From the NCBI GenBank assembly GCA_003554145.1, contig PWFS01000009.1:1-55475 (forward strand): a DNA stretch of 55,475 nt. The letters are read 5' to 3'. The translations under genes were made by a program, and so were the position numbers. Source of the stretch: Halobacteroidaceae bacterium (GTDB taxonomy: Bacteria > Bacillota > Halanaerobiia > B1SED10-174). Shown here in pieces: positions 5,252 through 46,506 of this stretch. Within the stretch, counting starts at the first letter, position 1. Each line of letters starts with the position of its first letter. The notes under the pieces were generated by a model. The model did no database searches. It worked only from the letters and a program-made list of their open reading frames with translations, and was not told the origin of the DNA.

Positions 5252-5678
5252 TAAATGGAATTGAATTCTGGTTTTGGGGTTCAGATTTTTAAAAAACTGA
5301 ATTGAAAATTGTTTAATCTAATTTCAGATAGTAGGGGTTATCAGCAGATAGAAAGAAAAAAAATGTTTTTTTTTAAAAAAAATCGGGAAATTTTGGTATG
5401 GAGCGCCAATTATAATATAAGGAAGCCTTGATTTTTTTCAATGAGGTATAAAAACTTAAAAAGCCTCTTCAATAAAGGGTTTTCGGCTTTTCGAATAAAC
5501 CTTGATTCCTGAAAATTTGGTTTTATTTTTTTAAAAAAGCGGTTTTTTATGCCTGTTTTTTTTGAAAAAAACCCGGGATTGTTGAAATTATGGGATTTTT
5601 TCGCCTTTCCTTGCAGGAGTTTCCCGCCCTGTCACGAATTTTAAAGTTGGAATGGATAATTTAAGGAGGTGTAATTGC

Positions 5679-9164: not shown

Positions 9165-9272
9165 AAATTCTTAATTTCTCCAGCAGCCCGACAGTCCTGG
9201 GATTTATCCTGGACTCGAGGCTTTGCGTCCCTGCTTTTCAACAGGTTTGCCCTTTCTAGAGGTTGTTTTTCA
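9125..9272 (-). ncRNA. Candidate orphan sRNA (~150 nt), class unknown
   Basis: Bounded by a near-consensus promoter (9279-9307) and an intrinsic terminator (9123-9164). It has no ATG and no SD. Internal irregular hairpin gcct..agtcc-a-gga-taaa-tcc-ca-ggact..gggc. Confidence 0.45.
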
Positions 9273-20815: not shown

Positions 20816-21295
20816 ATGGAAGAACTTATTATTATTGTGATTATTCTGGTCCTTGTCTTTGGCCTGGGAACGATACAACTGCTTCCTGAGAGAGAAATTC
20901 TCCCTGAGGAAGAAATTGCTGTTGGAAATATTGGTGGCGATGAAAACTTTGATTTTGCTGAAAAAGGGGATATCAATTTAGATTTCCGGGGGCATATCAG
21001 CGGCAACGCAACGGTCAATATTGAATCCGAGCGGGGAAATATCTATCTGCGCTTTAGAGAGCACATTACTGGGAACCCAGATTTGAATATAAAAGCCAGT
21101 CAAGGGCATATCTTTATCGGGTTTGAAAGTTTAGTTGAAGGCAATCCCAGTATCAGTATTGAAAGCCACGGGGATATTATTTTTGCCAATGACCGGTCGA
21201 CAATTGACGAATACAGGGAAAAAAATCTCCTGCAAGTAAAGGCGGGAGGTAGGATTTACTACGGGGACGATTCTTTTTTCCGCCGTTTCCGTTAA
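20816..21295 (+). CDS. Hypothetical membrane-anchored protein with three ~22-aa beta-solenoid-like repeats
   Basis: ATG at 20816 lies 7 nt after GGAGGG; the track start at 20786 is a TTG without an SD. TM helix LIIIVIILVLVFGLG. Repeats GHISGNATVNIESERGNIYLRF, EHITGNPDLNIKASQGHIFIGF and SLVEGNPSISIESHGDIIFAN. Confidence 0.6.
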   Translation: MEELIIIVIILVLVFGLGTIQLLPEREILPEEEIAVGNIGGDENFDFAEKGDINLDFRGHISGNATVNIESERGNIYLRFREHITGNPDLNIKASQGHIFIGFESLVEGNPSISIESHGDIIFANDRSTIDEYREKNLLQVKAGGRIYYGDDSFFRRFR

Positions 21296-21338
21296 GATTT
21301 TTGAAATTAATTAATTCGGGAAAACCCGGGGTGAAAAA

Positions 21339-21968
21339 ATGGCCAGAGAAAAAGCAGACTTTTTTATCCAGAGATTGAGGTCCTACTATGGTGAACCGAC
21401 AACCGCACTGGAATACTCCAGCCCTTTTCAACTTTTGCTGGCAGTAATTCTCTCGGCCCAGACCACTGATAAACAGGTTAACAAAGTTACTCCCCGGCTA
21501 TTTGCCCAATATCCCACTCCGGAAAAACTTGCTGCTGCCCACCCGGATGAACTGGAAAAATTAATCAGGGGGATTGGCCTTTTTAGGAATAAGGCTCGGG
21601 CCTTAATAAATACTGCCCAGATGCTTTTAAGAGATTTCAATGGTCAGGTTCCGGGAAGCAGAGAAGAGTTAATGTCCCTGCCGGGTGTGGGCAGGAAAAG
21701 TGCCAATGTGGTTCTGGCAGTTGCTTTTGCCCGGGCCAGCTTTCCCGTTGATACCCATGTTTTCCGGGTTTCCCGCCGCCTGGGTTTGAGCCAGGGGCAG
21801 ACCCCCGAACAGGTGGAAAAGGATGTTACCGCAATTTATCCGGAAAAAGAGTGGATAAAATTCCATCACCTTTTGATTTCCCATGGACGTGAAATATGTA
21901 AGGCGCGGCGTCCTCTCTGTTCCAGGTGCCCTGTCCAGAAAGAATGTCCCAGTTCTATTGCTGTATAA
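21339..21968 (+). CDS. nth: Endonuclease III (HhH-GPD DNA glycosylase with a 4Fe-4S cluster)
   Basis: LPGVGRKSANVVL HhH motif. C-terminal CKARRPLCSRCPVQKEC. Confidence 0.95.
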   Translation: MAREKADFFIQRLRSYYGEPTTALEYSSPFQLLLAVILSAQTTDKQVNKVTPRLFAQYPTPEKLAAAHPDELEKLIRGIGLFRNKARALINTAQMLLRDFNGQVPGSREELMSLPGVGRKSANVVLAVAFARASFPVDTHVFRVSRRLGLSQGQTPEQVEKDVTAIYPEKEWIKFHHLLISHGREICKARRPLCSRCPVQKECPSSIAV

Positions 21969-21969
21969 T

Positions 21970-21998
21970 TTGCCACAGAAATAAAAATATGGTATACT
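21970..21998 (+). promoter_or_regulatory. Sigma-A promoter of the gcv operon
   Basis: TTGCCA, 17-nt spacer, TATACT, with an extended -10 TGg. Confidence 0.7.
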
Positions 21999-22029
21999 TT
22001 TTCTGGATGTATTTATAAAGTTGGATGAA

Positions 22030-22194
22030 AGAAGCGGGAGAGTTCCCTCGAGGACACCGAAGGCGTAATTCAAAGATAGGCCAATTTTGAAGAAACGCTC
22101 AGGTCCAAGGACCGTTTCTGGACAGAACTCTGGAGAGACCAGGCAGCTGGTCACCGAAGGGGTAATTATAATCTCTCAGGTACCGGGGACAGAG
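22030..22194 (+). promoter_or_regulatory. Tandem glycine riboswitch (two aptamers)
   Basis: Aptamer 1 (22030-22119): GGAGAG...CACCGAAGG...CUCAGG..AAGGAC, with P1 agaagcg/cgtttct. Aptamer 2 (22128-22194): CUCUGGAGAG...CACCGAAGGGGUAA...CUCAGG...GGGGACAGAG. Located directly upstream of gcvT. Confidence 0.9.
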
Positions 22195-22231
22195 TGGTCG
22201 GCCAATAAGCCTGCTGTGTCCAATTTTATTT
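22187..22231 (+). terminator. Expression-platform terminator of the glycine riboswitch
   Basis: ggacagagtgg pairs with ctgctgtgtcc (one mismatch), followed by aattttattt. Its 5' arm overlaps the aptamer-2 P1 3' strand, consistent with ON-switch logic. Confidence 0.6.
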
Positions 22232-22246
22232 ATGGAGGTGTTTTTA

Positions 22247-23338
22247 TTGACCCGTAAAACCCCTCTTTACGACTGGCACGTGGAGCTGGGAGGGAAGGTA
22301 GTTGATTTTGCCGGCTATAAGCTGCCGGTGCAGTTTGATGGGATTATTGAAGAACATAAAGCAGTTCGGAATGGGGTGGGAATTTTTGATGTGTCCCACA
22401 TGGGAGAATTTGAATTCAAGGGCCCCCAGGCGCTGGAGGCGGTGCAAAAACTGATAGCCAACAATGCCGCCCGGCTAAAAGTGAATCAGATTCTTTATAC
22501 CCCCATGTGCTATCCCGATGGTGGAGTGGTTGATGATTTCCTGGTTTACCGCCTGGGGGAAGCTCGCTTCTTATTTGTAGTTAATGCTGCCAACCAGGAT
22601 AAGGACTGGGAATGGGTTCAGGAAAACACCGGGGAATTTGATGTGCAGATCACCAATCAATCCCTGGCCACCGGGCAGTTAGCCCTGCAGGGGCCCCGGG
22701 CCCAGGAACTTTTGCAAAAAGTTTATGATCACAACCTCGAGGAAATTAAGTTTTTCTGGGGTAATTCTGAGGGGCGAATTGCAGGGCAGGAATGCCTTGT
22801 TTCCCGCACCGGCTATACTGGAGAAGACGGTTTTGAAATTTATGCTCCCAATGACGGTATTGTGACGATTTTTGAAGCCATATGGGAGGCAGGAAAAGAG
22901 TTTGACCTGCAGCCCTGCGGTCTGGGGGCCCGTGATACACTTCGTTTTGAGGCTGGTTTGCCCCTGTACGGCCATGAACTGGGGCCCAAAATCAATCCCT
23001 TGGAGGCCCGCTTGAAAATATTTGTTGACCTGGAGAAGGATGATTTCATTGGTCGCGATGCCCTCCTGGAGGTAGCGGAAAAAGGCGTTGAAAGAAGAAT
23101 TGCAGGAATTGAAATGAAAGATAAAGGCATTCCCCGCCAGGGGTATCCTGTAGAGGTCAACGGGGAAGAAGTTGGATTTGTTACCAGCGGCACCTATTCG
23201 CCAACCCTGGAAAAAAATATGGGAATTGTGATGGTGAAAAAGGAATTTGCTAAAGCAGGTAGTAAATTAGATATTAGAATCAGAAAAAGGCTCCTGGGGG
23301 CCGAGGTAGTAAAAATACCATTTTACAAAAGGAGGTAG
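22247..23338 (+). CDS. gcvT: Glycine cleavage system T protein (aminomethyltransferase)
   Basis: TRKTPLYDWH...GIFDVSHMGE. The TTG at 22247 lies 8 nt after GGAGG; the ATG at 22232 sits inside the SD. Confidence 0.95.
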   Translation: MTRKTPLYDWHVELGGKVVDFAGYKLPVQFDGIIEEHKAVRNGVGIFDVSHMGEFEFKGPQALEAVQKLIANNAARLKVNQILYTPMCYPDGGVVDDFLVYRLGEARFLFVVNAANQDKDWEWVQENTGEFDVQITNQSLATGQLALQGPRAQELLQKVYDHNLEEIKFFWGNSEGRIAGQECLVSRTGYTGEDGFEIYAPNDGIVTIFEAIWEAGKEFDLQPCGLGARDTLRFEAGLPLYGHELGPKINPLEARLKIFVDLEKDDFIGRDALLEVAEKGVERRIAGIEMKDKGIPRQGYPVEVNGEEVGFVTSGTYSPTLEKNMGIVMVKKEFAKAGSKLDIRIRKRLLGAEVVKIPFYKRR

Positions 23339-23345
23339 TTGATTT

Positions 23346-23720
23346 ATGTATCCGGAGGAATTAAAGTACACTGAAGATCATGAATGGGTTCGAGTAGAGG
23401 ACGGCAAAGCTTATGTGGGGGTAACTCATTATGCCCAGGAACAGCTGGGAGACATTGTTTTTGTTGAGTTGCCCGATTTGGACGAAGAGTTTGAAATGGG
23501 CGATACCTTTGGGGTAGTGGAGTCAGTGAAAACTGTTTCCGACCTTTTCATGCCTTTGTCCGGAAAAGTAGTTGAGATTAATGAAGATCTTGAGGATTCT
23601 CCCGAGGTGGTTAATGAAGATCCGCACGGGGCAGGCTGGATTATTGCCATTGAGCTATCGGATAAGAGTCAACTGGATCAATTAATGGACAGTGAAACCT
23701 ATAAAAAAACTCTGGAGTAG
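23346..23720 (+). CDS. gcvH: Glycine cleavage system H protein (lipoyl carrier)
   Basis: YTEDHEWV...ESVKTVSD lipoyl-lysine motif. Confidence 0.95.
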   Translation: MYPEELKYTEDHEWVRVEDGKAYVGVTHYAQEQLGDIVFVELPDLDEEFEMGDTFGVVESVKTVSDLFMPLSGKVVEINEDLEDSPEVVNEDPHGAGWIIAIELSDKSQLDQLMDSETYKKTLE

Positions 23721-23728
23721 GTGGTAAA

Positions 23729-25078
23729 ATGAATCATCAATTTTTGCCCAACAACGAGGCTTCTCGCAAAGAAATGTTGGAGTCCATCGGGCTCAGTTCT
23801 ATTGAAGAACTTTTTGGATGTTGTATCCCGGAACAGGTACGTTTTAAGGGGGAGCTGGACCTGCCTGAACCCCTTTCCGAAATGGAAGCTCGCCGGCTTT
23901 TAACCCAGATTGCCAATGTTAATCGGCCTGCTTCTTCCATGGTTTCCTTTTTGGGAGGCGGGGTTGCTGACCACTATATTCCAGCAGCCATTGATCATAT
24001 TGTATCCCGCAGCGAATTCTACACCGCGTATACCCCTTATCAGGCCGAGGTTAGTCAGGGAACCCTGCAGAATATTTTTGAATTTCAGACCCTGATCTGC
24101 ATGCTGACCGGAATGGATGTGGCCAATGCGTCCATGTATGATGGAGCTTCAGCTCTGGCGGAGGGAGTTTTAATGGCTTCCGCCACCACCCGCCTGGATA
24201 AAATTGTTATCAGCCAGACTGTAAATCCCCAGTACCGGGAAACTGTGCAAACCTATGCTCAGGCTACCGGACTGGAGGTAGTAGAAATCCCCCATAAAGA
24301 GGGCCTGACTGATGTTGAAGCCATGGGGGAAGAAGTAGATGATCAGACAGCAGCAATTGTATTCCAGAACCCCAACTTTTTTGGTCAGGTTGAGGATCCT
24401 TTTCCCATCAGTGAACTAAAAGAAAAGGGCAAGAAAACCCTCCTGATCAGCGTAGTTGATCCAATTTCCCTGGGGGTGTTAGTTCCCCCGGGTGATTATG
24501 ATTGTGATATTGCCCTGGGTGAAGGGCAGCCTCTGGGCAATCCCGTCTCCTTTGGAGGTCCGCACCTGGGCTTTTTTGCGGCCACGCAAAAGCTGGTCCG
24601 AAAAATGCCAGGACGCTTGATTGGTCAGACCAAGGATGTTGATGGTCAGAGGGGTTTTGTTATGACCCTCCAGACCCGGGAGCAGCATATTCGCCGCCAC
24701 CGGGCTACCTCAAATATCTGCACCAATCAGGCCTTAAATGCCCTGGCTGCAGCAGCTTATCTTAATCTTATGGGCAAAGAAGGCCTGCAGGAGGTAGCTC
24801 AACATTGCCTGCAGAAGGCCAATTATCTCAAGGAGAAAATTGCAGCCCTGCCGGGGTACACTGTTCCCTTTGAAGGACCCAGTTTTAAGGAATTTGTGGT
24901 AAAGGCCAATCGTCCCTTTACTTCTATCCAGGAAAAGATGGTGGATCGCGGCTTCCTGCCCGGCATTCACCTTCAGCCCTATTATGAAGGCATGGAAGAC
25001 TGGTTCTTGGTCTGTGTAACAGAGAGCAGGACCCGGGATGAGTTAGATCGATTTGCTGCCGGATTGGAGGGAGTTTAG
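23729..25078 (+). CDS. gcvPA: Glycine dehydrogenase (decarboxylating) subunit 1
   Basis: FLGGGVADHYIPAAI and YTPYQAEVSQGTLQ motifs. Confidence 0.95.
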   Translation: MNHQFLPNNEASRKEMLESIGLSSIEELFGCCIPEQVRFKGELDLPEPLSEMEARRLLTQIANVNRPASSMVSFLGGGVADHYIPAAIDHIVSRSEFYTAYTPYQAEVSQGTLQNIFEFQTLICMLTGMDVANASMYDGASALAEGVLMASATTRLDKIVISQTVNPQYRETVQTYAQATGLEVVEIPHKEGLTDVEAMGEEVDDQTAAIVFQNPNFFGQVEDPFPISELKEKGKKTLLISVVDPISLGVLVPPGDYDCDIALGEGQPLGNPVSFGGPHLGFFAATQKLVRKMPGRLIGQTKDVDGQRGFVMTLQTREQHIRRHRATSNICTNQALNALAAAAYLNLMGKEGLQEVAQHCLQKANYLKEKIAALPGYTVPFEGPSFKEFVVKANRPFTSIQEKMVDRGFLPGIHLQPYYEGMEDWFLVCVTESRTRDELDRFAAGLEGV

Positions 25079-26533
25079 ATGAAGAATAAAGATCTGATTT
25101 TTGAAAAAAGCCGTCCGGGAAAAATTGGCTATTCCCTACCAGGACTTGATGTTCCCTCGAAAAATGATATCCTGCCGGAAAAGGTGCAGAGAAAAAACCC
25201 GGCCCCGCTGCCTGAAGTTGCAGAAGGAGAGGTTTTGCGCCACTATATTAATCTCTCTCAGTTAAATCACAGTGTGGATAACGGTTTTTATCCCCTGGGT
25301 TCCTGTACCATGAAATATAATCCCAAGATTAATGAAGATGTTTCCCGCCTGCCGGGTCTGGCCGGACTGCACCCCTATCAGAGTGAAGAAATGACCCAGG
25401 GTGCCCTGAAAATGATGCATGATCTGGAGAAGTACCTCTGTGAAATCGCAGGAATGGATCGACTTACTCTGCAACCTGCCGCCGGAGCCCACGGTGAACT
25501 AACCGGGCTGATGCTGATGCGGGCCTATCACCGCCACCGGGGCCAGGAGCAACGCAAGAAAATAATTATTCCTGATTCCGGCCATGGGACCAACCCGGCT
25601 TCGGTTACCATGGTTGACTATGAAACAGTGGAAATCCCCTCTTCTGAAACAGGCTGTGTTGATCTTGAAGCGCTGAAGGAAGTTCTGGATGATCAGGTGG
25701 CGGGTTTGATGATTACCAACCCCAATACCCTTGGGTTTTATGAATCCAATATTACCGAGATTTGCCGATTGGTTCGTGAGGCGGGAGGTCTCCTCTATTA
25801 TGATGGAGCCAATGCCAATGCGATAATGGGCTATTCTCGCCCGGGTGATATGGGTTTTGATATTATCCACTACAACCTGCACAAAACATTTGGAACTCCT
25901 CACGGAGGCGGAGGTCCCGGGTCGGGACCGGTAGGAGTCAAGGATAAGCTGATTCCCTTCCTGCCCTGTCCTTTAATTGAAGAAGAAGATGGACAGTATT
26001 TCTTCGATTATGACCGTCCCCAGTCCATTGGCCGGGTTCGCTCCTTTTTCGGTAATTTTGGAGTCCTGATTAAGGCCTACACCTATATAAGAATGATGGG
26101 GGCCCAGGGCTTGAAGCAGGTCAGCGAGGATGCAGTACTCAATGCCAATTATATAATGGAGAATCTGGCGGACACTTATTACCTGAAGTACCATCGCAAC
26201 TGCATGCACGAATTTGTCCTGTCGGGTAAAAAACAAAAAGATGAGCATGGAGTTACCACCACCGATATTGTTAAAAACCTCCTGGACCATGGAATACATC
26301 CCCCGACGGTATACTTCCCACTGATTGTGGAAGAGGCCATGATGATTGAGCCCACCGAGACTGAAAGCAAAGAAACATTGGATAGATTTATCGAAGTCAT
26401 GGAGGAAATCGCAAAAATGGCGGAGGAGGATCCGGAAAAATTAAAAGGAGCCCCTTATACTACCCCAGTTCGTCGTCTGGATGAAGCCGGGGCCGCCCGC
26501 AACCCCATTTTAAAGTGGGAACCAGAACAGTGA
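25079..26533 (+). CDS. gcvPB: Glycine dehydrogenase (decarboxylating) subunit 2
   Basis: [14 protein letters not shown]-lysine context HYNLHKTF. Confidence 0.95.
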
Positions 26534-27384
26534 TTAAAAACAGGGAACCGGCCGCAGACAACAGACTGCGGCCGGCTTCTTTAATTACCGGTACCCCTCC
26601 CCCCATATTTTTTTATCCGGAAAGAACCCGAACGGTCTCGGTCTCGGGAGGAGCATGTGCTTTAAATTGTGAACACTGCCGGGGCCATTTTTTGCAAAAC
26701 ATGACTCCTCTAAAAGAAGTACCCCCAAAAAGCGAAACTGATTATAACAGTCTGTTGATCAGTGGGGGCTGCGATAAAAATGGGCAGGTTTATTTGCCCT
26801 CAAAAGAAGACCTGGCCTGGCTGCAGGGGCAGGGCCCTCTGAACTTTCATGTGACCCTGCTTGACCGGAAGGGGCTGGATTTAATTGAGCCCTATGCTCA
26901 CACCATTTCTCATGATCTACACGGAAGTAACCGGGTAATTAAAAAAGTACTGGGACTTAAGAACCACTCTTTTTTAGATTATGCCCATTCCTATAAGCGG
27001 GTCTGGAGTCGGACCAGGGTCATTCCCCATATCCTGATCGGCCTGGAGGGAACTGATTTTTCCGGGGAAAAACTTGTTATTAAGCTCCTGGAAGAATATC
27101 CTCCTCCTGCTGTAGTTTTTCTGGTGTACATGCCCCGACTCCAATCTCCATTATTGCCCTCTCGGGTCCCGAACCTGGATGGAGTTCTTGAGTTTCTCCA
27201 GGAAGCCAAACAGAGCCTGTCTGGCCTTCCCCTGATTCTGGGCTGTATGCGCCCCGGGGGGAAATACCGGGTAGAACTGGATCGAAGGGCCCTGGCCCTG
27301 GGTTTTGCCGGGATAGTGCAACCGGCAATTCCTGGCCAAAACCCGATCATCAGCGAGGAGTGCTGTGCTTTATGGGAATGGTAG
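26515..27384 (+). CDS. Radical SAM protein, BioB/LipA-related (LipS1/LipS2-type lipoyl synthase component candidate)
   Basis: CxxxCxxC motif in [19 protein letters not shown] start at 26515, or at 26530 as a GTGA overlap with the gcvPB stop. No in-frame start lies between the hairpin and the Cys motif. Confidence 0.75.
26548..26575 (+). other. Perfect 10-bp GC-rich hairpin just past the gcvPB stop, inside the 5' end of the next CDS
   Basis: ccggccgcag / acaacaga / ctgcggccgg followed by cttctttaatt. Confidence 0.6.
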
Positions 27385-28373
27385 GTGTGTCCAGTGGAAC
27401 TGCAGCGGTTTTGGGCTTAAGTCAGAACAGGAATGACACCCTTCCCACAACGGCTTATTTGCTTCTGGGAGAAAGCTGTCGCAATTCCTGCAGCTTTTGC
27501 CCGCGGGGGGCCCATAATGATGGAGGGAGCAGGTATCTATCCCGGGTAACCTGGCCCCTTTACAGCTGGGAAGAAGTTTTTCCCCGCCTAATTTTTGCCT
27601 GCCGGGAGGGTTTACTGGGAAGGGTCTGTTTTCAGGTTACCGATGCCCCCGGCAATCATAAACAGCTCCTTGCTTATGGAAGAAGCCTGGCGGAGGAGGG
27701 TGTTGCGGTTAATACCTCCTGCGTGATCCATGGGGAAAAAGAGGGGCGGGAATTACTGGATGCTGGATTTGCCAGGATTGCCTTAGCCCTGGATGCTGCT
27801 TCACCGGATATCTATGCCCGGGTTAAGGGTGACCGCTGGCAAAAAACCTGGGAATTATTGTCTCGACTTAATACTGATTATCCCGGCCAGGTGGGGACTC
27901 ACCTCATCGCAGGGTTGGGGGAACAACCCCAGGAAATGTTTACAGTCCTTTTTAAGCTGATTCGGGAAAAAATTGGGGTTGGGCTTTTTGCCTTTACTCC
28001 AGTGCGGGGAACTCCCCTGGCCGGTTACTCACCTCCCCCCCTGAACTATTATCGACAGTTGCAACTGGCCAGCCAACTCTTTCAGTCAGGGGAAATTGAG
28101 TTGCAGAATCTTTCTTTTCAGGGCAATCAACTCCGGGACTGGGGTCTTTCCCCCCTGGAGCTGGCTCGAGCCATTCGGCCTCAACATTTTCAGACTCCGG
28201 GCTGCCTTCACTGTAATAGACCATATTATAATGAGCGGCCAGGGGGAACAATTTATAATTATCCCCGACCCCTGACCCCTGCCGAGTTCGTGCAGGCCAC
28301 CCGGGAAGCTTTAATCGGGACTGAACAGGAGGGAGTTTTGGATGAAAAACAAATCCTGGCGACTTATTGTTGA
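27360..28373 (+). CDS. Radical SAM protein, biotin-synthase-related (second LipS1/LipS2-type component candidate)
   Basis: GESCRNSCSFCPRG CxxxCxxC motif. LALDAASPDIY and HLIAGLGE BioB-like strands. C-terminal CLHC. Overlaps the upstream rSAM gene (alternative ATG at 27372). Confidence 0.75.
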   Translation: MLCFMGMVGVSSGTAAVLGLSQNRNDTLPTTAYLLLGESCRNSCSFCPRGAHNDGGSRYLSRVTWPLYSWEEVFPRLIFACREGLLGRVCFQVTDAPGNHKQLLAYGRSLAEEGVAVNTSCVIHGEKEGRELLDAGFARIALALDAASPDIYARVKGDRWQKTWELLSRLNTDYPGQVGTHLIAGLGEQPQEMFTVLFKLIREKIGVGLFAFTPVRGTPLAGYSPPPLNYYRQLQLASQLFQSGEIELQNLSFQGNQLRDWGLSPLELARAIRPQHFQTPGCLHCNRPYYNERPGGTIYNYPRPLTPAEFVQATREALIGTEQEGVLDEKQILATYC

Positions 28374-29178
28374 CGGCCCGCTAACCGGGCAACGCAATAT
28401 GGCTGTTGATGAGAGTATTTTAATAAATTGTAATAAAAGGGAGCAGCCAACCCTGCGCTTTTACAAATGGGATCCAACCTGTTTAAGCCTGGGGTATTTT
28501 CAAAAGACCGGGGAAATTGACCTCCATACCTGTGCAGAAAAGGGTATAGATGTGGTCCGACGCCCCACCGGGGGACGGGCTGTTCTGCACAAAAATGAAT
28601 TAACCTACAGTGTTATTCTGCCCCTGTCTATTTTACCGGGAAAACTTTTAGAGACCTATAAAATTATCAGCTCTGCCCTGACTGCAGGATTGCAGAAACT
28701 GGGTATTAAAGCCCGGTTGACTCCAGCCAGAAAACAACTTCCCACCAGCAGTGCTGCCTGCTTTGATGTTTCCAGTTCTTATGAGATTAACTGGGAGGGC
28801 AAAAAATTAATTGGCAGTGCCCAGACCCGCAGGGATTCAGCTCTTCTCCAGCATGGTTCCATTCCAATATTTGATTACAGTCAGGAATTAATTTCCCTTC
28901 TAAACCTTGATTCGGATCGACGCCAGGCTTTAAACCGGGTTCTCAACCGCAAGGCTTCATCTCTTACCGGAGCAGGTCTAACCTGGTCAGAAGAGGAGTA
29001 CCTGCAGGGAATTCAAAAACTGGAAAAAGCATTTCAGGCCGGTTTTGAACAGGAGCTGGGCCTGGATTTTTGGTCAGGGGATTTAACCCCGGAGGAGAAA
29101 AAACTGGCCTGTGAACTGGAGGAAAGCAAGTACGGCAGCCTTAATTGGCGACCGGAAAAAACTCCTTCCTCACAATAG
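28342..29178 (+). CDS. Lipoate-protein ligase / octanoyltransferase family protein (LplA catalytic-domain or LipM type)
   Basis: LRFYKWDPTCLSLGYFQ, RRPTGGRAVLH, AACFDVSSSYEI..GKKLIGSAQTR. RBS GGAGGG. Overlaps the upstream gene by 32 nt. Confidence 0.85.
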   Translation: MKNKSWRLIVDGPLTGQRNMAVDESILINCNKREQPTLRFYKWDPTCLSLGYFQKTGEIDLHTCAEKGIDVVRRPTGGRAVLHKNELTYSVILPLSILPGKLLETYKIISSALTAGLQKLGIKARLTPARKQLPTSSAACFDVSSSYEINWEGKKLIGSAQTRRDSALLQHGSIPIFDYSQELISLLNLDSDRRQALNRVLNRKASSLTGAGLTWSEEEYLQGIQKLEKAFQAGFEQELGLDFWSGDLTPEEKKLACELEESKYGSLNWRPEKTPSSQ

Positions 29179-29334
29179 AAAATGAATGCAGGGAATTCTG
29201 GCTTTTTGATTTCTCCGGGGCCAAATTAGCTTCTTTTCTTCTTGATGGTGGCTACACCCGGTAAAAGCAATGCCTCCAATAATCCCGGTGCAGAGAAATA
29301 TTATTCTCCGTACCTTTTTTGAAGGGAGAAAGCT

Positions 29335-30192
29335 TTGAACTATCAAGAATTAAAAACTAAAACAGCCCTTAATCCTTTAAAAAGAAAGGGCCTGCCCTAT
29401 AAGTTTGATTTAAATATTTATCAGGGCTGTTCCCATGGTTGTAAGTACTGCTATGGGTCCAGCAACCAGAAGTACCTGGGGAATAATCTTTTTTCGAGTG
29501 AGATATCGGTCAAAAGTAATATTGCACAGATTCTGGACCAGGAGCTAAGTTCCTCAACCTGGAAAGGGGATATTATTAATATTGGGGGAGTTTGTGATAG
29601 TTATCAGGCCGCAGAAAAGCAATTTATGATTATGCGCTCGGTCCTGGAGGTGCTGATCAGGCATAAAAACCCGGTTATTATCAGCACCAAGTCCGACCTT
29701 ATTTTGCGTGACCTGGATTTAATTAATGAATTGGGACAACAGGCCTATGTTAATATTGCTGCCTGCATTACTACTGTGGATGATGAAATGTCCCGTTCAA
29801 TAGAGCCGGGAGCAAGCTTGCCCCACTCCAGGCTAAATGTTCTGCGGGAATTTTCCCGGTCCACAGCTTTTACGGGTTTTCATTTTATGCCGATTTTACC
29901 CTATCTGGCTGATGATGAGCCAGTTCTGGAAGAAATGGTTAAGTGGGCCGCCTCTGCAGAAGTAGATTATATGCTGACCGGAGTTCTATATTTAACCGGG
30001 GGAATAAAAAAGAAGTTTTTCTCTTTTCTGGAGGAGGAATATCCAGAGTTACTGGGGGATTATCAGAGGCTATACCCCCGGGGTGGAGCAGATCCAGAGT
30101 ATAAAGCGGGGGTGCATAAATTTTTGGGGCAAATGAGAAAAAAGTACCGGGTGAACAATAATTATAGCCAATTTCTGCCCTCGAAAAATTAA
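29335..30192 (+). CDS. Radical SAM protein of the SplB/Rv2578c-like (COG1533-type) family
   Basis: TTG start after GAAGGGAG. FDLNIYQGCSHGCKYCYG. Confidence 0.75.
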   Translation: MNYQELKTKTALNPLKRKGLPYKFDLNIYQGCSHGCKYCYGSSNQKYLGNNLFSSEISVKSNIAQILDQELSSSTWKGDIINIGGVCDSYQAAEKQFMIMRSVLEVLIRHKNPVIISTKSDLILRDLDLINELGQQAYVNIAACITTVDDEMSRSIEPGASLPHSRLNVLREFSRSTAFTGFHFMPILPYLADDEPVLEEMVKWAASAEVDYMLTGVLYLTGGIKKKFFSFLEEEYPELLGDYQRLYPRGGADPEYKAGVHKFLGQMRKKYRVNNNYSQFLPSKN

Positions 30193-30268
30193 TTTTCCAG
30201 GGTGAATAAAAAAGGTAAGCCTTTTTTGCAGATAGGGCAGGTTATAAATGAAAATAAGGAGGAGTGGA

Positions 30269-30835
30269 ATGGAACCTAAAATTTATGCTATTGATACTCA
30301 GCGGGTTGACTTAAGTGAAATTGATTTTCCCGGGCCTACCCTGGATATTGGGGGCGGAGGTGAAGGGGTAATAGGGCAGATCAATGACGAGGAATTAATT
30401 GTCATTGATCAGAGGGAGGATGAACTCCGGGAAGCTCCTTCAGGGGGAATAAAACTGGTTATGGATGCGGGAGATTTGAAATTCCTGGATAATTCCTTTG
30501 CTCATGCTACTTCCTTTTTTACCTTCATGTATATTCCGCCTGAGGAGCATCAGCAGGTTTTTGCGCAGATATTCCGGGTCTTAAAAGAGGGCGGACAGTT
30601 CTGGATCTGGGATGTAAAAATGCCAGATAAGGGCGCGAGGGAAGAAAATGTTTTTGTGGTCCCCCTGCAGGTTAAATTAAAAGGCAAAGAGATTGAAACC
30701 GGGTACGGGGTGCCCTGGAACAGGGAACAGGACCTTAATTATTACCGGGATCTCGGAGAAAATAATGGCTTTGCTGTCCTGGAAGCGAGTCAGTTCGGGG
30801 AAACTTTTTTCCTGCGACTGCAAAAGAAAAAATGA
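30269..30835 (+). CDS. Class I SAM-dependent methyltransferase (small, Methyltransf_11-like)
   Basis: Motif I LDIGGGGEGV. Motif post-II MDAGDLKF. ATG at 30269 lies 6 nt after AAGGAGG; the track start is 30248. Confidence 0.75.
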   Translation: MEPKIYAIDTQRVDLSEIDFPGPTLDIGGGGEGVIGQINDEELIVIDQREDELREAPSGGIKLVMDAGDLKFLDNSFAHATSFFTFMYIPPEEHQQVFAQIFRVLKEGGQFWIWDVKMPDKGAREENVFVVPLQVKLKGKEIETGYGVPWNREQDLNYYRDLGENNGFAVLEASQFGETFFLRLQKKK

Positions 30836-31179
30836 GGATTGGGTTCTGCGAGTAGGATCTGGAGAGAGGGCTTAGCTGAAACGGGCATTTTCTCTTTGGG
30901 GAGTAAATTGCGGAAATAATAGAAAAGTAACTGGGATTTCTCGCCCGGGAGTTTAACCCTGAACCAATACTCTTTAATCCCAAATATGATTTCCTTAAAT
31001 CTATACCATTCCAGATTTTCCTGGAGCCTGGAGGCCGAGACAATTCCGAAATATGGCGGGCTTTTATTAGGTTTTTTGCAGAATTGTTTTTATGTCAAGC
31101 ATATAGTTGTTCCCATAAATCCTGGTAGGGGAAAAGGGGAAAAAACAGTCAAACAAAACTTTTGGAGGTGGGTTTAGTT

Positions 31180-32556
31180 ATGAGTACCTATGATATTTTG
31201 ATTTTAGGCGGGGGGCCCGCAGGTTACATGGCAGCCCTGCATGGGGCCCAAAAAGGAGCCCGGGTGGCTCTGGTGGAGAAGAAATACCTGGGGGGGACCT
31301 GTCTCAACTGGGGTTGTATTCCGACCAAAACGATGGTTGAAGGAGCTCACCTGAAAGCGGCAATGGAAAAGGGCCGGGATTATGGCCTCAACGTGGGAGA
31401 TTATGATTTTAACCTGGAGAGGCTGGTCCATAAAAAAGATGAAGTAGTTCAGAATCTACGCCAGGGCATCGCCGGGCTGATCAAGGCCAATAAAATTGAT
31501 TTCTTTTCCCAGGAGGGACGGGTCACGGCTACCGGGGAAGAAAAGGAACTGACCCTGGCTGATGGGACCACCATCCAGGGGAAAAAACTGCTTCTGGCTA
31601 CCGGCAGTAAAGTTTTTAATCCCCCCATTCCCGGGCTGGAGGAGGTTCCTTTTCTTACCAGCGATACCATTCTGGATCTGAAAGAATTACCTTCCGAGCT
31701 TATTATCATTGGTGCAGGAGTTATAGGACTGGAAATGGCCAGTATTTTTAATAATCTGGGAGCAAAAGTGACTGTTATTGAAATGATGGACCAGATTCTG
31801 CCCGGTCTGGATAAAGAGCTGGCTCAAAGGGCCAGGATTTTCCTCAAGAAAAAAGGTATTGAGCTGGAAACTAAAACCCAGGTGCAAAAGCTGGAAAAAA
31901 GAGGAGAAGAGATTGCAGTTAAGTACCTGCGGCGCAATAAGGAAGCAGAAAAAACTGGATCCCACCTACTAATGGCCACAGGGCGCCATCCGGTTTATAC
32001 CGGGCTTGAATTCCTGGGGGAGGAACCGGAGATAAAAGTAGATGAGTACCTGGAAACCCCTTATCCTGGAATTTATGCTGCTGGAGACCTAATCGGTGGA
32101 TATCAACTGGCCCATGTGGCCTATCATGAAGGAATTGTTGCGGTAAATAATATGCTGGGGGAAAAGGAAAAGGCCTGTTATTCAGGTATTCCCAACTGTG
32201 TTTTCTCCGATCCTCAGATTGCCACTACCGGGTGGAGTGAGGAAGAGGTAAAAGAGCAGGGAGTTGAGTTTGAGGTAGTTAAGTTCCCCTTCAGTGCCCT
32301 GGGTAAAGCAGTTGCTTCTTCTGACCCTGAAGGTCTGGTTAAGGTGATTTATAGTAAGGAACAGGGACAGTTGCTGGGGGTTCATATTATTGGCCGGGAG
32401 GCCACGGAAATAATTCATCAAGGAGCATATGCAGTTAGAATGGGACATACGGTAGGGCAGCTGGCCCGGACAATATTTGCCCATCCTACCTATAGTGAGG
32501 GGTTAGGGGAGGCCTATCATATGACCCAGGGCCATTTTTATCATACTACCCCCTAG
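31180..32556 (+). CDS. lpdA: Dihydrolipoyl dehydrogenase (E3 / GCS L-protein)
   Basis: GGGPAGY...GGTCLNWGCIPTK redox disulfide. C-terminal HAHPTYSE. The ATG at 31180 follows GGAGGTG. Confidence 0.95.
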   Translation: MSTYDILILGGGPAGYMAALHGAQKGARVALVEKKYLGGTCLNWGCIPTKTMVEGAHLKAAMEKGRDYGLNVGDYDFNLERLVHKKDEVVQNLRQGIAGLIKANKIDFFSQEGRVTATGEEKELTLADGTTIQGKKLLLATGSKVFNPPIPGLEEVPFLTSDTILDLKELPSELIIIGAGVIGLEMASIFNNLGAKVTVIEMMDQILPGLDKELAQRARIFLKKKGIELETKTQVQKLEKRGEEIAVKYLRRNKEAEKTGSHLLMATGRHPVYTGLEFLGEEPEIKVDEYLETPYPGIYAAGDLIGGYQLAHVAYHEGIVAVNNMLGEKEKACYSGIPNCVFSDPQIATTGWSEEEVKEQGVEFEVVKFPFSALGKAVASSDPEGLVKVIYSKEQGQLLGVHIIGREATEIIHQGAYAVRMGHTVGQLARTIFAHPTYSEGLGEAYHMTQGHFYHTTP

Positions 32557-32633
32557 GTCTCCTTATTACCGGATAAAATTGGAGAAAGGTTTTAAGGGGA
32601 GTTCGTCGAATACTTTATAGTGGGGGTGGGGGC

Positions 32634-34640
32634 ATGAAACAAAAATGCCTGTTTTTGATTTTGATTTTAGCCTGTTCCAGCCTGATCTTTTTTCCCGGTT
32701 TATGCCGGGGCGAGGAAATACTGGATCAGGCCCTGGAAAACCTGAAAGACGCCTATGAGAAAGGGGAACTGGCTGCCAGCACCCTCCTGTTACAGTTTAT
32801 TCTGGAGCAAAAACCGGAAGGAACCCGTTACTACCTGGATCTGGCCGGGATATACCAGGAAAAAGGAGACTTTTACCGGGCCAGGACAACACTGGAAAGA
32901 GGCCTGGAAAAAGCGGATAATAGCGATCTTATTAAAGCTGAAATAGCCCGCCTGGAAGTTATAACCGAAAAAACCGGCCTGGAAATTGAACGGCTGGGTT
33001 CTGCTGATTCCCGCGATTTTTATTTCTACCGCGGCCTGCATTACAAGCAACTAAAACAGTGGCCCCAGAGTATTGCCGACCTGAAAAAGGCCATTGAACA
33101 TGACCCCAACCTCATTGCCGCCTATTATTTTCTGGGGTTGGTTCTAATTGAAACCGAAAGCTTGGAAGCCGCAGAAGATGTTTTGCAGGAAGGCCTGCGG
33201 CGAGATTCCAGTTTTACCGGGATTAATTTATTGCTGGGCCACCTGGCTTTTCAGCGGGATGATTATCATTCAGCCTATAATTATTATCTGCGGACCCCCG
33301 CCAATCTAAGGGATGATCAGGTCCGGAAGAGGATTTCTTTTATCCAGGAGTTATTGCCTCCGCCCCCGGAAAAACCAGAGCGAGAACTGAGGGAGGAAAC
33401 GGTTGATTTTCAAAGGGTTAAACCAATTGTTGATGAAAACATACCCCTGCTGCGGGTTGCTTTATTGACCCAGGGCCTGGAATTCAGCTTTCAAACTGAG
33501 GTCCCCTTCAACCTGAAGACCCTGGAGGGGCAGACCCTTTTTCAGGGAGAGCCCAGAAAAACCTATTTTATCGAATTTAAACAGGGGACATTTTTCCTGC
33601 GCAACCTGCAGGGGGAAAAACTTCTGTCAACTTCCAAAGCCCATCGCCTGGAAATTGCAGAACAGGATACGACCCTGCATCTCTTTGATGTTGAATACGG
33701 GGAAGGATATTTCTGGGCCGGGCGAGAAGACCGTCAGTACCGAGGATCATTTATAATCCAGCCCCGCAACGAAGAGCACTTTTACCTGATTAATGAGGTT
33801 AATGTAGAAGAGTACCTTTATTCTGTTGTTCCTTCGGAAATGCCTGCTTCCTGGCCCATGGAAGCTCTCAAAGCCCAGGCCATTGCTGCCCGCAGTTATA
33901 CCATGAACCGCTATTATCGGAATCCTGACAGCACTTATCACCTGGTGGCCTCGGTTATTAATGCTGCCTACAACGGAGTTAACTGGGAAAATGAAAGATC
34001 CCAGGAAGCTGTGGATAAAACCAGGGGGATAATTGCAACTCATGGAGGCCGGGCAATTGATGCTGTCTACAGTGCCAATTCCGGTGGATTTACCGAGGAT
34101 AGTTCGCTGGTCTGGGGAGGAGAGGTCCCTTACTTACAGGGACAGCCAGTTTTCCCCGAATATTTCGAGTTTGACCTATTACCTTCGGGATTGGCTGAAT
34201 GGTTGCGGGAAAGGCCCCCTTCTTTTTCCCGGGCAGAAAACTATGGTTCTGCAACCAGTTATCGGTGGACCCGGGTTCTGTTGCCCGAGGAACCCCCGGT
34301 GGCCAGTAGAGTCGGGCCCATTATAGAGATAGTTGCCCAGGACAGAGGAAAAAGCGGCTTTGTCAAATCAGTTTTGGTCCGGGGTGAGAGGGGAGAAGAA
34401 ATTCTTTCTGGAGATCGCATTCGCAGTCAACTGGGAGGTTTGAAAAGCAACCTTTTTATGGTTGAACCGGTTTTTGGTGATGATAATAAACCCCAGTATT
34501 TCCTGATCTGGGGCGGTGGCTGGGGTCATGGTGTTGGTATGGATCAGACTGCGGCAGCCCAGATGGCTGCTGATGGATTTAGCCATTCCGAGATAATTAA
34601 AACTTTTTATCAGGGAGTAGATCTGGAAAAAAGATATTAA
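32634..34640 (+). CDS. Secreted TPR-repeat plus SpoIID/LytB-domain protein
   Basis: Signal peptide, then N-terminal TPR-like repeats. The C-terminal half has AQAIAARSYT and YSANSGGFTEDSSLVWG signatures. Confidence 0.85.
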   Translation: MKQKCLFLILILACSSLIFFPGLCRGEEILDQALENLKDAYEKGELAASTLLLQFILEQKPEGTRYYLDLAGIYQEKGDFYRARTTLERGLEKADNSDLIKAEIARLEVITEKTGLEIERLGSADSRDFYFYRGLHYKQLKQWPQSIADLKKAIEHDPNLIAAYYFLGLVLIETESLEAAEDVLQEGLRRDSSFTGINLLLGHLAFQRDDYHSAYNYYLRTPANLRDDQVRKRISFIQELLPPPPEKPERELREETVDFQRVKPIVDENIPLLRVALLTQGLEFSFQTEVPFNLKTLEGQTLFQGEPRKTYFIEFKQGTFFLRNLQGEKLLSTSKAHRLEIAEQDTTLHLFDVEYGEGYFWAGREDRQYRGSFIIQPRNEEHFYLINEVNVEEYLYSVVPSEMPASWPMEALKAQAIAARSYTMNRYYRNPDSTYHLVASVINAAYNGVNWENERSQEAVDKTRGIIATHGGRAIDAVYSANSGGFTEDSSLVWGGEVPYLQGQPVFPEYFEFDLLPSGLAEWLRERPPSFSRAENYGSATSYRWTRVLLPEEPPVASRVGPIIEIVAQDRGKSGFVKSVLVRGERGEEILSGDRIRSQLGGLKSNLFMVEPVFGDDNKPQYFLIWGGGWGHGVGMDQTAAAQMAADGFSHSEIIKTFYQGVDLEKRY

Positions 34641-45453: not shown

Positions 45454-46506
45454 ATGGATCTCAAATCATTTATCGAGCGTATCAGTAATTCTCTGGGGAT
45501 TTCCGGTTGCGAACAGGAGGTTGCTGGAGAAATTACCATGGCCTGGGAGCAAATTGCCGATGAGGTCAGAAGGGATAATCTTGGAAACGTAATTGCGCTG
45601 AAAAAAGGTAAGAACAGCCACAAACCACCCCTTATGCTTGCGGCCCATCAGGATGAAATTGGTTTTCTGGTTCGGGACATTGATAAGGATGGGTTTATCA
45701 GCCTGGATCCTATAGGGGGGATTGATCCTCGCCTGCTTCCCGGACAGGAAATTAAAATATGGGGTAGAGAAGAAACTCTGGGAGTAGTGGGGGCGCGGCC
45801 TCCGCACCTGCAAAAACCCCAGGACAGGGAAAAAGCAATTCCCCTGGAAAAAATATTTGTGGATTGTGGCCTGAAGAAAGAAGAACTGGAGAAAAAAATC
45901 CGGATTGGAGATGCGGTTACTTTTCATCAAAAAATGGGCTGGTTGAATGAAAATATTGGTTACGGCAAGGCCCTGGATGACCGGGCTGGTGTGGCAGCCC
46001 TGCATCAGGTTTTATTGGAATTGAAGGATCGCACCACTCCCCTTGATGTTGCAGTGGTGGCTACGGTACAGGAAGAGGTAGGCATCAGGGGGGCTATTAC
46101 CAGCTCCTTTGCCCTCAATCCCGATCTGGGACTGGCGGTTGATGTGGCCTTTGCCAGCAGGCCGGGCCTGGAAAAAGAAATGACCCTGAACTCTAATGGG
46201 GGACCTGGACTTGAAATAGGGCCTCATATGCATCCCGGGGTCCTGGAAAAATTAAAAGAAGTAGCCGGAGAAAAAGAAATCCCCATTCAACTGATCGGTG
46301 TTCCCCATCCCGGGGGTACTGATACCTATGTCATGCAGATGAACCGCTGTGGCATGGCAACCGGTCTATTATCCATTCCCCTGGCCAATATGCATTCTCC
46401 AGTTGAAGTAATTGATATCAGGGATGTTCGTAGGACCGGGCGTTTAATGGCCAGTTTCTGCCTGCAGGCCGATGTCGAATTCGTGGAGGGATTAAAATGC
46501 TTATAA
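45454..46506 (+). CDS. M42 family metallopeptidase paralog 1 of 3
   Basis: AHQDEIGF, LDDRAGV, QEEVGIRGA, GGTDTY and NMHSP motifs. Confidence 0.9.
   Translation: MDLKSFIERISNSLGISGCEQEVAGEITMAWEQIADEVRRDNLGNVIALKKGKNSHKPPLMLAAHQDEIGFLVRDIDKDGFISLDPIGGIDPRLLPGQEIKIWGREETLGVVGARPPHLQKPQDREKAIPLEKIFVDCGLKKEELEKKIRIGDAVTFHQKMGWLNENIGYGKALDDRAGVAALHQVLLELKDRTTPLDVAVVATVQEEVGIRGAITSSFALNPDLGLAVDVAFASRPGLEKEMTLNSNGGPGLEIGPHMHPGVLEKLKEVAGEKEIPIQLIGVPHPGGTDTYVMQMNRCGMATGLLSIPLANMHSPVEVIDIRDVRRTGRLMASFCLQADVEFVEGLKCL

Follow-up and report, generated by a model that had tools for sequence, protein, structure and literature searches.

Can a glycine-cleavage operon carry the genes that build the lipoyl cofactor of its own H protein? 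The question is raised by a 55,475-nt contig of a Halobacteroidaceae bacterium (PWFS01000009.1, assembly GCA_003554145.1, forward strand), which is referred to here, in its full length, as the window. In this contig, gcvT, gcvH, gcvPA and gcvPB (22232/22247-26533) are followed, with no gap, by three overlapping open reading frames (ORFs), as seen in the ORF map and the junction sequences: one of 284 or 289 aa with the motif CALNCEHC, one of 333 or 337 aa with the motif CRNSCSFC, and one of 278 aa that belongs to the lipoate/biotin ligase superfamily. A first-pass annotation of this DNA had described two overlapping radical S-adenosylmethionine (radical-SAM) genes directly 3' of gcvPB, followed by a ligase gene with a 32-nt overlap; the ORF map agrees with this description, and both of the motifs that it named were found. 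We consider it quite likely that the locus is a self-contained glycine-cleavage operon that builds its own lipoyl cofactor.

The locus was compared with its relatives by means of a pattern scan, with a 12-sequence LipS1 alignment, of one genome per species. The scan returned 464 genomes with a LipS1 relative, and the counts given below were obtained by mapping the window proteins onto the best 80 of these 464 loci. Individual related loci are designated by labels of the form L001. The features described between 21970 and 32556 are on the + strand.

The radical-SAM pair matches the LipS1 and LipS2 families

The first of the three genes, lipS1 (26530..27384), encodes a radical-SAM protein whose sole match among the NCBIfam models is the LipS1 family, NF053742 (196.9 bits, E=4.6e-58, 249 of 268 model positions). 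The second, lipS2 (27372..28373), encodes a protein that matches Pfam Radical_SAM and the LipS2 model NF053743, the latter over model positions 3-292 of 292 and with 296.1 bits (E=2.9e-88), which passes the cutoff of 270. These are the best profile matches of the pair, in line with the LipS1/LipS2 identity proposed by the first-pass annotation. All of the 23 aligned LipS1 homologues, including the archaeal ones, match NF053742 (best E=3.6e-90). We place the window LipS1 in this family in a broad sense, as a member of a divergent Bacillota clade that falls short of the equivalog cutoff of 230 bits.

Canonical LipA and BioB were rejected as identities of the pair. The N-terminal Cx4Cx5C motif of LipA is lacking in both proteins, as had been claimed beforehand and as a motif search confirmed, and the profile scores are negligible: the LipA model PRK05481 gives 18.1 bits for LipS2 (cutoff 203) and no match for LipS1. 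The BioB model TIGR00433 gives 21.4 bits for LipS2, missing its cutoff of 225, and no match for LipS1, and the likeness to BioB is found at the level of the fold only, with template-modelling (TM) scores of 0.5-0.6. The AlphaFold2 models of the two proteins have predicted local distance difference test scores of 90.5 (LipS1) and 90.3 (LipS2). Among solved structures, the folds closest to these models are BioB and HydE for LipS1 (TM ~0.6; LipA 0.47) and BioB, HydE and LIAS for LipS2, which bears out the earlier remark that the second protein is BioB-like. For both models, the TM scores are 0.5-0.6 with BioB, HydE and PylB and 0.41-0.51 with LipA and LIAS. No solved structure of LipS1 or LipS2 was found by a sequence search of the PDB, where LipS2 had no match and the LipS1 profile had a weak match to BioB.

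The cysteines of the two proteins are conserved beyond the radical-SAM motif. The invariant residues of LipS1 are C43/C47/C50, which form the CxxxCxxC motif, plus C239, C278 and C279 (23 sequences, archaeal ones included), and those of LipS2 are C36/C40/C43 of the same motif plus C86, C278 and C281 (26 sequences). The three extra invariant cysteines of each protein are presumably the candidates for a sacrificial auxiliary Fe-S cluster.

Could the pair do something else, i.e., carry out another BioB- or HydE-type reaction, such as a different sulfur insertion or the maturation of another cofactor, and simply accompany the gcv genes? The solved folds closest to the two models are those of BioB, HydE and PylB rather than that of LipA, the LipS1 score is under the equivalog cutoff, and we know of no biochemistry for any Bacillota member of LipS1 or LipS2. 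Yet no other profile comes close to LipS1 and LipS2 as a match, with all of the aligned homologues matching LipS1, and because of this the pair does not fall into an unrelated radical-SAM family such as HydE or the PylB-like proteins, despite its neighbours in fold space. Furthermore, in dozens of species the two genes are locked between a lipoyl-carrier operon and an octanoyltransferase gene, with lpd after them, and lipoate assembly is the only function that makes sense of this context. We regard a reaction unrelated to lipoate as very improbable and hold the identity of the lipoylation module with considerable confidence. LipS1 and LipS2 would then convert octanoyl-lysine to lipoyl-lysine, an activity that is supported by the gene context (GcvH, octanoyltransferase and Lpd). 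Most homologues of the module genes are unnamed in the databases or carry generic names, e.g., 'radical SAM protein', 'biotin synthase' or 'lipoate-protein ligase family protein'.

The third gene is probably a LipM-type octanoyltransferase

The third gene (28342..29178) starts at ATG 28342, with a 32-nt overlap with lipS2 and behind a strong Shine-Dalgarno sequence, AGGAGGG. The only Pfam domains of its product are LplA-B_cat (E=3e-29) and BPL_LplA_LipB. Residues 8-270 align with the catalytic subunit of Thermoplasma LplA (262 aa) from one end to the other and, because this alignment spans the whole length of the protein, it has no accessory domain. The median length of the orthologues is 273 aa. 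The protein fails the LplA-type models of NCBIfam, i.e., LplA_large (88.7 bits for a cutoff of 480), LplAB (69.5 for 550) and TIGR00545 (51 for 280), and covers only positions 97-227 of the 348 positions of LplAB.

The catalytic residues point to a transferase. A cysteine, Cys140 (in 'AACFD'), lies 15 residues before Lys155, and the pair is kept in 72 of 73 operon-linked orthologues. Full-length comparison with LipM-type proteins gives 42% identity for one of Brevibacillus laterosporus and 37% for one of Bacillus (tblastn, 156-194 bits), and the motifs CFD...K...QHGS are invariant in its alignment with the Bacillus and Brevibacillus homologues. In a sequence taken to be that of B. subtilis LipM, which is 67% and 60% identical to these two proteins, the counterparts of C140 and K155 are C150 and K165. 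C150 is said, in work dating from 2010, to be the acyl-enzyme cysteine of B. subtilis LipM. The sequence that we take to be LipL is a weak match to the third protein.

Because of its single domain, its Cys140/Lys155 pair and its 37-42% identity to LipM-type proteins, we read the third gene as probably encoding an octanoyl-acyl carrier protein (octanoyl-ACP):GcvH octanoyltransferase and not an ATP-dependent ligase. LipM-type chemistry seems likely to us. The earlier designation of the protein as an LplA/LipM-type ligase is thus kept in its LipM half, whereas the single domain and the Cys-Lys pair make an ATP-dependent ligation step improbable.

The gene could also encode the catalytic subunit of a split LplA that works with an LplB-like accessory subunit encoded elsewhere, in which case free octanoate would be ligated before LipS1 and LipS2 act, as in the pathway type of archaea or sulfur oxidisers. 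The best solved relative of the protein is the LplA catalytic subunit of Thermoplasma acidophilum (E=5e-17), its best match in NCBIfam is LplA_large, at 88.7 bits and, to our knowledge, the characterised LipS1/LipS2 systems all use ATP-dependent ligases. Nevertheless, the LplA_large score is far under its cutoff, the LipM-type matches (156-194 bits by tblastn) contrast with the 65 bits of the Thermoplasma match (phmmer), and the cysteine that nearly all orthologues have at position 140 is absent at this position from Thermoplasma LplA. In L081-L083, the gene calls place nothing between lipS2, the ligase gene and lpd, and the 80 loci are too tightly spaced for an additional gene. We find a split ligase improbable and retain the reading of the third gene as an octanoyltransferase of the LipM type.

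Spread of the gcv-lip arrangement

The complete order gcvT-H-PA-PB-lipS1-lipS2-ligase-lpd was found in 39 of the 80 loci and the same order without lpd in another 13, together 52/80. More local associations were also counted: gcvPB is directly 5' of lipS1 in 62 loci, at least one gcv gene is adjacent in 68, and a LipS2 homologue is immediately 3' of lipS1 in at least 78. A homologue of lpd lies 3' of the ligase gene in 47 of the 80 loci, mostly within ~100 nt. These loci are found in Halanaerobiales, Negativicutes (Sporomusa, Pelosinus, Propionispora and Acidaminococcaceae), Peptococcaceae, Carboxydothermus, Thermincola and some Chloroflexota. The closest relatives of the window are metagenome-assembled genomes (MAGs) of Halobacteroidaceae, with 60-62% identity in LipS1 and 84-90% in the Gcv proteins. 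A glycine riboswitch precedes gcvT in seven of the seven diverse relatives examined. The three archaeal genomes that were sampled each carry LipS1 as a gene on its own.

The joining of gcv and lip genes is the commonest context of LipS1 in Bacillota, and not an unusual one. The first-pass annotation had presented the regulatory wiring of cofactor assembly as noteworthy; the wiring is real but, with 52 of 80 loci sharing it, it is a widespread arrangement of curated families.

Departures from this arrangement were also seen. Some loci keep lipS1-lipS2-ligase without nearby gcv genes (L022, L025, L041, Desulfosporosinus) or with only gcvH upstream, in the order gcvH-lipS1-lipS2-ligase-lpd (the set comprises L022, L025, L041, L027, L046 and L056). 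This suggests a minimal cassette of carrier plus lipoylation enzymes that is separable from the P and T proteins. In Carboxydothermus islandicus (L005; 201-291, 2418-2598), the operon lies behind a variant riboswitch, glycine-GGAnGA (RF03166), and not behind the classic aptamer, and a tRNA-Sec gene is nearby. A PYLIS_3 element is found ~8 kb 3' of the cluster in L060 (20697-20796). In Brevibacillus laterosporus (L088, NZ_CP011075.1, 339326-352147), a LipM-type gene is located just 3' of gcvT-gcvPA-gcvPB, with a chemotaxis-receptor gene in between; the linkage of gcv and lipM is therefore also seen in Bacilli that lack LipS1/LipS2 at the locus.

Gene order and start codons

The window has four gcv genes. 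The first, gcvT (22247..23338), encodes the aminomethyltransferase (T protein) and shares 84-86% identity with the gene that opens the conserved gcvT-H-PA-PB cluster in the relatives L001-L004; its name is taken from this synteny and from established knowledge of GcvT sequences, and not from a profile match. Its longest ORF begins at ATG 22232. The start is more likely TTG 22247, because ATG 22232 lacks a Shine-Dalgarno sequence and TTG 22247 lies behind GGAGGTG (duplex energies of -1.6 and -13.1 kcal/mol, respectively). The gene of the H protein, gcvH (23346..23720), encodes the lipoyl carrier and would provide the substrate of the module; it matches Pfam GCV_H (E=1.5e-44) and TIGR00527 (168.8 bits, cutoff 115.85), and the lipoyl-lysine motif ESVK62T was found in its product. 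The two subunits of glycine dehydrogenase are encoded by gcvPA (subunit 1, 23729..25078), which is 84-87% identical to its orthologues in L001-L004 and 46% identical to the annotated gcvPA of Brevibacillus, and by gcvPB (subunit 2, 25079..26533), for which these values are 88-89% and 62%. The gcvPB orthologues of L081 and L082 carry the Pfam domains GDC-P and GcvP2_C.

Two start codons are available for lipS1, GTG 26515, which would give a 19-nt overlap with gcvPB, and GTG 26530, which lies in a 4-nt GTGA overlap with the gcvPB stop codon. Both had been put forward by the first-pass annotation. The relatives favour the second, which is almost certainly the true start, because the closest homologues are of 283-284 aa, because relatives with an ATGA overlap use its ATG, and because the gene callers agree in L081-L083. 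For lipS2, the candidates are GTG 27360, ATG 27372 and ATG 27378. The predicted start is ATG 27372, because the product of the window gene is recorded as 333 aa (P0214) and because the resulting overlap of 13 nt is also called in L081-L083. The two radical-SAM genes do overlap, as previously described, but by 13 nt and not by ~25 nt.

The gene of dihydrolipoyl dehydrogenase (L protein), lpd (31180..32556), matches TIGR01350 with 479 bits (cutoff 408.8) and is located ~2 kb 3' of the ligase gene. Its longest ORF begins at TTG 31162. The start ATG 31180, behind GGAGGTGGG, is the likelier one because TTG 31162 has no Shine-Dalgarno sequence. Two inserted genes and a gap of ~344 nt separate lpd from the ligase gene. 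The inserted genes encode, according to NCBIfam/Pfam matches, a radical-SAM protein of the Rv2578c/PA0069 family (29335-30192) and a class-I methyltransferase (30248-30835). Homologues of either were detected in none of the 80 related loci, and the pair is probably not part of the lipoylation module; lpd is directly 3' of the ligase gene in L083, and other ORFs are found downstream in L081. The pair resembles a lineage-specific insertion that has detached lpd from the operon and left the ~344-nt gap 5' of it. A permissive Rfam scan of this gap and of the 156-nt gap that also lies 3' of the ligase gene gave only matches at chance level.

A tandem glycine riboswitch precedes the operon

The first-pass annotation had implied a glycine riboswitch, and two aptamers were indeed found above the gathering score (32) of Rfam RF00504: the first at 22025..22124 (65.4 bits, a full-length match to the model) and the second at 22127..22195 (43.2 bits). 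The tandem ends 37 to 52 nt 5' of gcvT, according to the start codon chosen, and the same pair of aptamers is present in the relatives L001 and L044. Upstream of it lies a promoter-like site, TTGCCA, 17 nt and TG-n-TATACT (21970..21998), a consensus match with 10 of 12 hexamer positions and the TG of an extended -10 element. It is the best sigma-70-type match in 21000-33000; the same consensus scan gave no promoter-like site on the + strand inside gcvPB. Behind the second aptamer is a putative expression platform (22187..22231), in which a hairpin, whose 5' arm overlaps the 3' end of aptamer 2, is followed by AAUUUUAUUUA. A hairpin and U-tract in this position would fit an antiterminator that is switched on by glycine, which is probably how this riboswitch works. 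That glycine also controls the lip genes, together with gcv, we hold to be probable.

A conserved hairpin at the boundary of the gcv and lip genes

A conserved stem-loop was found at the junction between gcvPB and lipS1 (26530..26588, core 26548-26575). Its core is a 10-bp GC stem, CCGGCCGCAG-N8-CTGCGGCCGG, that covers codons 7-19 of lipS1, and its lower stem extends to the GUGA overlap of stop and start codons (minimum free energy -37.8 kcal/mol, z=-4.1). The nucleotide sequence of the hairpin is under selection. In five orthologues, whose LipS1 proteins are ~61% identical, no stretches of invariant nucleotides in lipS1 are longer than the two arms. At positions where the amino acid is conserved, the codon is identical in all five sequences in 9 of 10 cases in the arms and in 20% elsewhere in lipS1 (binomial P=4e-6). 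The arms are invariant in eight of eight orthologues, in which the 8-nt loop has seven different sequences. In L044, a more distant member of the Halanaerobiales, the corresponding site has a 19-bp hairpin that retains the core but differs in the sequence of its lower stem and contains a G.U pair. The peptide encoded by the hairpin corresponds to a low-confidence N-terminal tail of the LipS1 model and lies outside the match to the LipS1 profile. This conserved RNA hairpin is the only unexpected feature of the locus.

Several known kinds of element were considered for the hairpin. It had no match to an Rfam family. A dispersed repeat of the repetitive extragenic palindromic (REP) type was rejected, as the window has a single copy of the motif and none was seen outside the orthologous position; the motif is absent from the other 75 of the 80 related loci. 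A DNA operator is less likely, given a loop of 8 nt in the close clade versus 3 nt in L044 and one G.U pair. A pure intrinsic terminator is not favoured, since the U-tract is weak in the window and absent in L044.

Strong hairpins are also more frequent at this junction elsewhere. Structures of -30 kcal/mol or less were found at 13 of 62 gcvPB-lipS1 junctions and at 2/61, 7/78 and 4/71 of the control junctions. In lineages with a spacer (~170 nt), the hairpins adjoin the gcvPB stop codon and not lipS1, and most are without a U-tract. Near-perfect hairpins of ~32 bp and ~19 bp were observed in the gcvPB-lipS1 spacers of two other Bacillota MAGs, L075 (~5556-5660) and L032 (~5145-5230), respectively; these could represent strong RNA structures or else palindromes of a mobile or repeat type.

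The signals for the initiation of lipS1 translation are the weakest of the cluster, with a GTG start and a Shine-Dalgarno duplex of -5.1 kcal/mol, compared with -9.6 to -13.6 kcal/mol for the gcv genes. The lip genes had been described as apparently coupled in translation to their substrate, GcvH. The overlaps on which this was based are real but, together, the hairpin, the GTG start and the weak Shine-Dalgarno sequence argue for a damped, non-stoichiometric coupling. We give even chances to the hairpin acting as an expression valve that lowers lip expression relative to gcv.

Another reading would separate the two sets of genes. If the hairpin were an efficient terminator or processing site, lipS1, lipS2 and the ligase gene might be expressed from a constitutive promoter inside gcvPB, and cofactor assembly would be physically linked to gcv but independently regulated. 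The stem is very stable and under selection, with an A-rich tract 5' and CUUCUUUAAU 3' of it, several lineages have a spacer of 170-600 nt with strong hairpins between gcvPB and lipS1, and in L022, L025 and L041 the three lip genes occur with no gcv genes nearby. However, the genes overlap by 4 nt in the clade of the window, and the ATGA/GTGA overlaps are conserved, which points to a hand-over of ribosomes. Moreover, gcvPB has no promoter-like site on the + strand, and the U-tract of the hairpin is poor, to the point of being absent in L044. We regard a separate promoter as unlikely, and the co-regulation of the lip genes by glycine as the better account of the junction.

A model for the operon

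From these elements we infer the following mechanism. A sigma-70-type promoter and the tandem glycine riboswitch, probably as an antiterminator that is on in the presence of glycine, would drive gcvT-gcvH-gcvPA-gcvPB, and transcription and translation would continue into lipS1, lipS2 and the LipM-type gene through the overlaps of 4, 13 and 32 nt. The LipM-type enzyme would take the octanoyl group, most likely from octanoyl-ACP, and transfer it to Lys62 of apo-GcvH via an acyl-thioester on Cys140 and with the participation of Lys155. LipS2 and LipS1 would then insert two sulfur atoms to give lipoyl-GcvH; in Thermococcus, LipS2 reportedly acts at C8 and LipS1 at C6. Lpd, encoded nearby, would re-oxidise the lipoyl-GcvH. 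The hairpin could work as a valve in two ways, singly or combined: it could stabilise the 3' end of the gcv segment or terminate it leakily, and it could hinder the initiation of lipS1. In combination with the GTG start and the weak Shine-Dalgarno sequence, it may keep the LipS and LipM enzymes far scarcer than the abundant Gcv proteins.

A number of points weigh against this model. The LipS1 protein scores 196.9 bits, below the 230 bits of the NCBIfam equivalog cutoff. The third protein was assigned to LipM from pairwise similarity, its domain content and its Cys-Lys pair, there being no curated LipM model in Pfam or NCBIfam, and both the best solved relative and the best NCBIfam match of the protein are LplA catalytic subunits. 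The terminator fold of the riboswitch is not statistically distinctive (z=-0.8). The junction hairpin could be a complete terminator, which would leave the lip genes outside riboswitch control, or it could serve another purpose. Finally, the genome may encode a LipA/LipB route of the canonical kind, or an LplB partner, beyond the 55-kb contig; LipA, LipB, LplB and E2 lipoyl-domain proteins were not found among the 27 window ORFs profiled with Pfam and NCBIfam, nor LipL among the 20 of these that were scanned with Pfam in a second round, a set that leaves out ~10 ORFs of at least 150 aa and the small ORFs.

Taken jointly, the elements would amount to a third, hitherto uncharacterised LipS pathway in anaerobic Bacillota, LipM-LipS1/LipS2, that depends on octanoyl-ACP, is independent of ATP and is wired into a substrate-induced gcv operon under a glycine riboswitch. 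In this pathway, the lipS1 hairpin, more constrained than the protein that it encodes, would set the ratio of cofactor-building enzymes to apo-protein and would be a new cis-element. We put this combination forward only tentatively, as one that is more probably wrong in some part than right in all.

Comparison with known systems

The closest precedent for the radical-SAM pair is the two-protein lipoyl synthase of Thermococcus kodakarensis (TK2109/TK2248), reportedly described in studies of 2020 and 2022. By NCBIfam profile, its LipS1 and LipS2 belong to the same two radical-SAM families as the window proteins, and they share the CxxxCxxC motif with three more conserved cysteines in each protein, the lack of Cx4Cx5C and the BioB-like fold. 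The systems differ in their genetic organisation, as the window genes overlap within the gcv operon whereas archaeal LipS1 is encoded by a stand-alone gene in the three genomes sampled. They also differ in the partner enzyme, which is of the LipM type in the window and a split ATP-dependent ligase (Lpl-N/Lpl-C) in Thermococcus. The identity of the window LipS1 to the archaeal members that were found is only 25-33%, and its score is below the equivalog cutoff.

A bacterial version, the sLpl(AB)-LipS1/LipS2 pathway of the sulfur oxidisers Hyphomicrobium and Thioalkalivibrio, is said to have been described in 2023. There too, a bacterial LipS1/LipS2 pair is clustered with an enzyme of the LplA superfamily and with the lipoyl-carrier protein that it serves. 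In contrast, the carrier of the window is a genuine GcvH (above the cutoff of TIGR00527) and not the LbpA of the sHdr system, the window ligase has no fused accessory domain, and the window cluster is under a glycine riboswitch.

In B. subtilis, lipoyl groups are supplied by a LipM-LipA-LipL relay in which GcvH is an obligate intermediate, and the gcvT-gcvPA-gcvPB operon is under a glycine riboswitch. The window resembles this relay in its LipM-type enzyme with the same Cys-Lys pair, in GcvH as the acceptor and in the riboswitch 5' of gcvT, and it has the neighbourhood of lipM and gcv in common with Brevibacillus. Unlike in B. subtilis, LipS1/LipS2 take the position of the lipoyl synthase, gcvH, the synthase genes and lipM are joined into the riboswitch operon, and the cluster has no LipL.

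Canonical LipA (Escherichia coli, Mycobacterium tuberculosis, human LIAS) and BioB share with the window LipS proteins a partial triose-phosphate isomerase (TIM) barrel fold and the radical-SAM insertion of sulfur into an unactivated C-H bond, presumably at the expense of a sacrificial cluster. Compared with canonical LipA, the window has two polypeptides instead of one, no Cx4Cx5C motif and TM scores of 0.41-0.51. A phylogenomic survey of 2023 is said to have found 'unforeseen combinations' of lipoate-assembly enzymes. The enzyme families of the module are already known, and both LipS families are covered by curated models in NCBIfam; a new variant might yet lie in the pairing with LipM and in the hairpin.

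Other features of the window

Two further observations concern the rest of the window. On the - strand, at 9178-9260, lies a variant cyclic di-GMP riboswitch aptamer, c-di-GMP-I-GGC (RF03167, 67.6 bits for a gathering score of 59). No sizeable ORF follows it on the same strand, where only ORFs of 41-53 aa are found before a convergent gene for a CDP-alcohol phosphatidyltransferase. The window also has four paralogous genes for M42 glutamyl-aminopeptidases, one at 7256-8329 and three in tandem, with overlapping ends, at 45454-48522.

Significance

These results extend known enzyme families and a known riboswitch regulon and do not overturn the current understanding of lipoate assembly. If our reading is correct, the generic or absent names of many homologues could be corrected in the databases. 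The combination of LipM with LipS1/LipS2 would be a convenient bacterial system in which to study the two-protein lipoyl synthase, and a compact cluster of this kind would help in equipping other hosts with a functional glycine cleavage or reductive-glycine module. The junction hairpin would be an example of how a single operon can yield some proteins in structural and others in catalytic quantities. For the organisms themselves, enzyme and cofactor assembly would come as one compact package induced by the substrate, and many anaerobic Bacillota, acetogens and further possible users of the glycine cleavage/synthase system among them, would run this system without a need for LipA.

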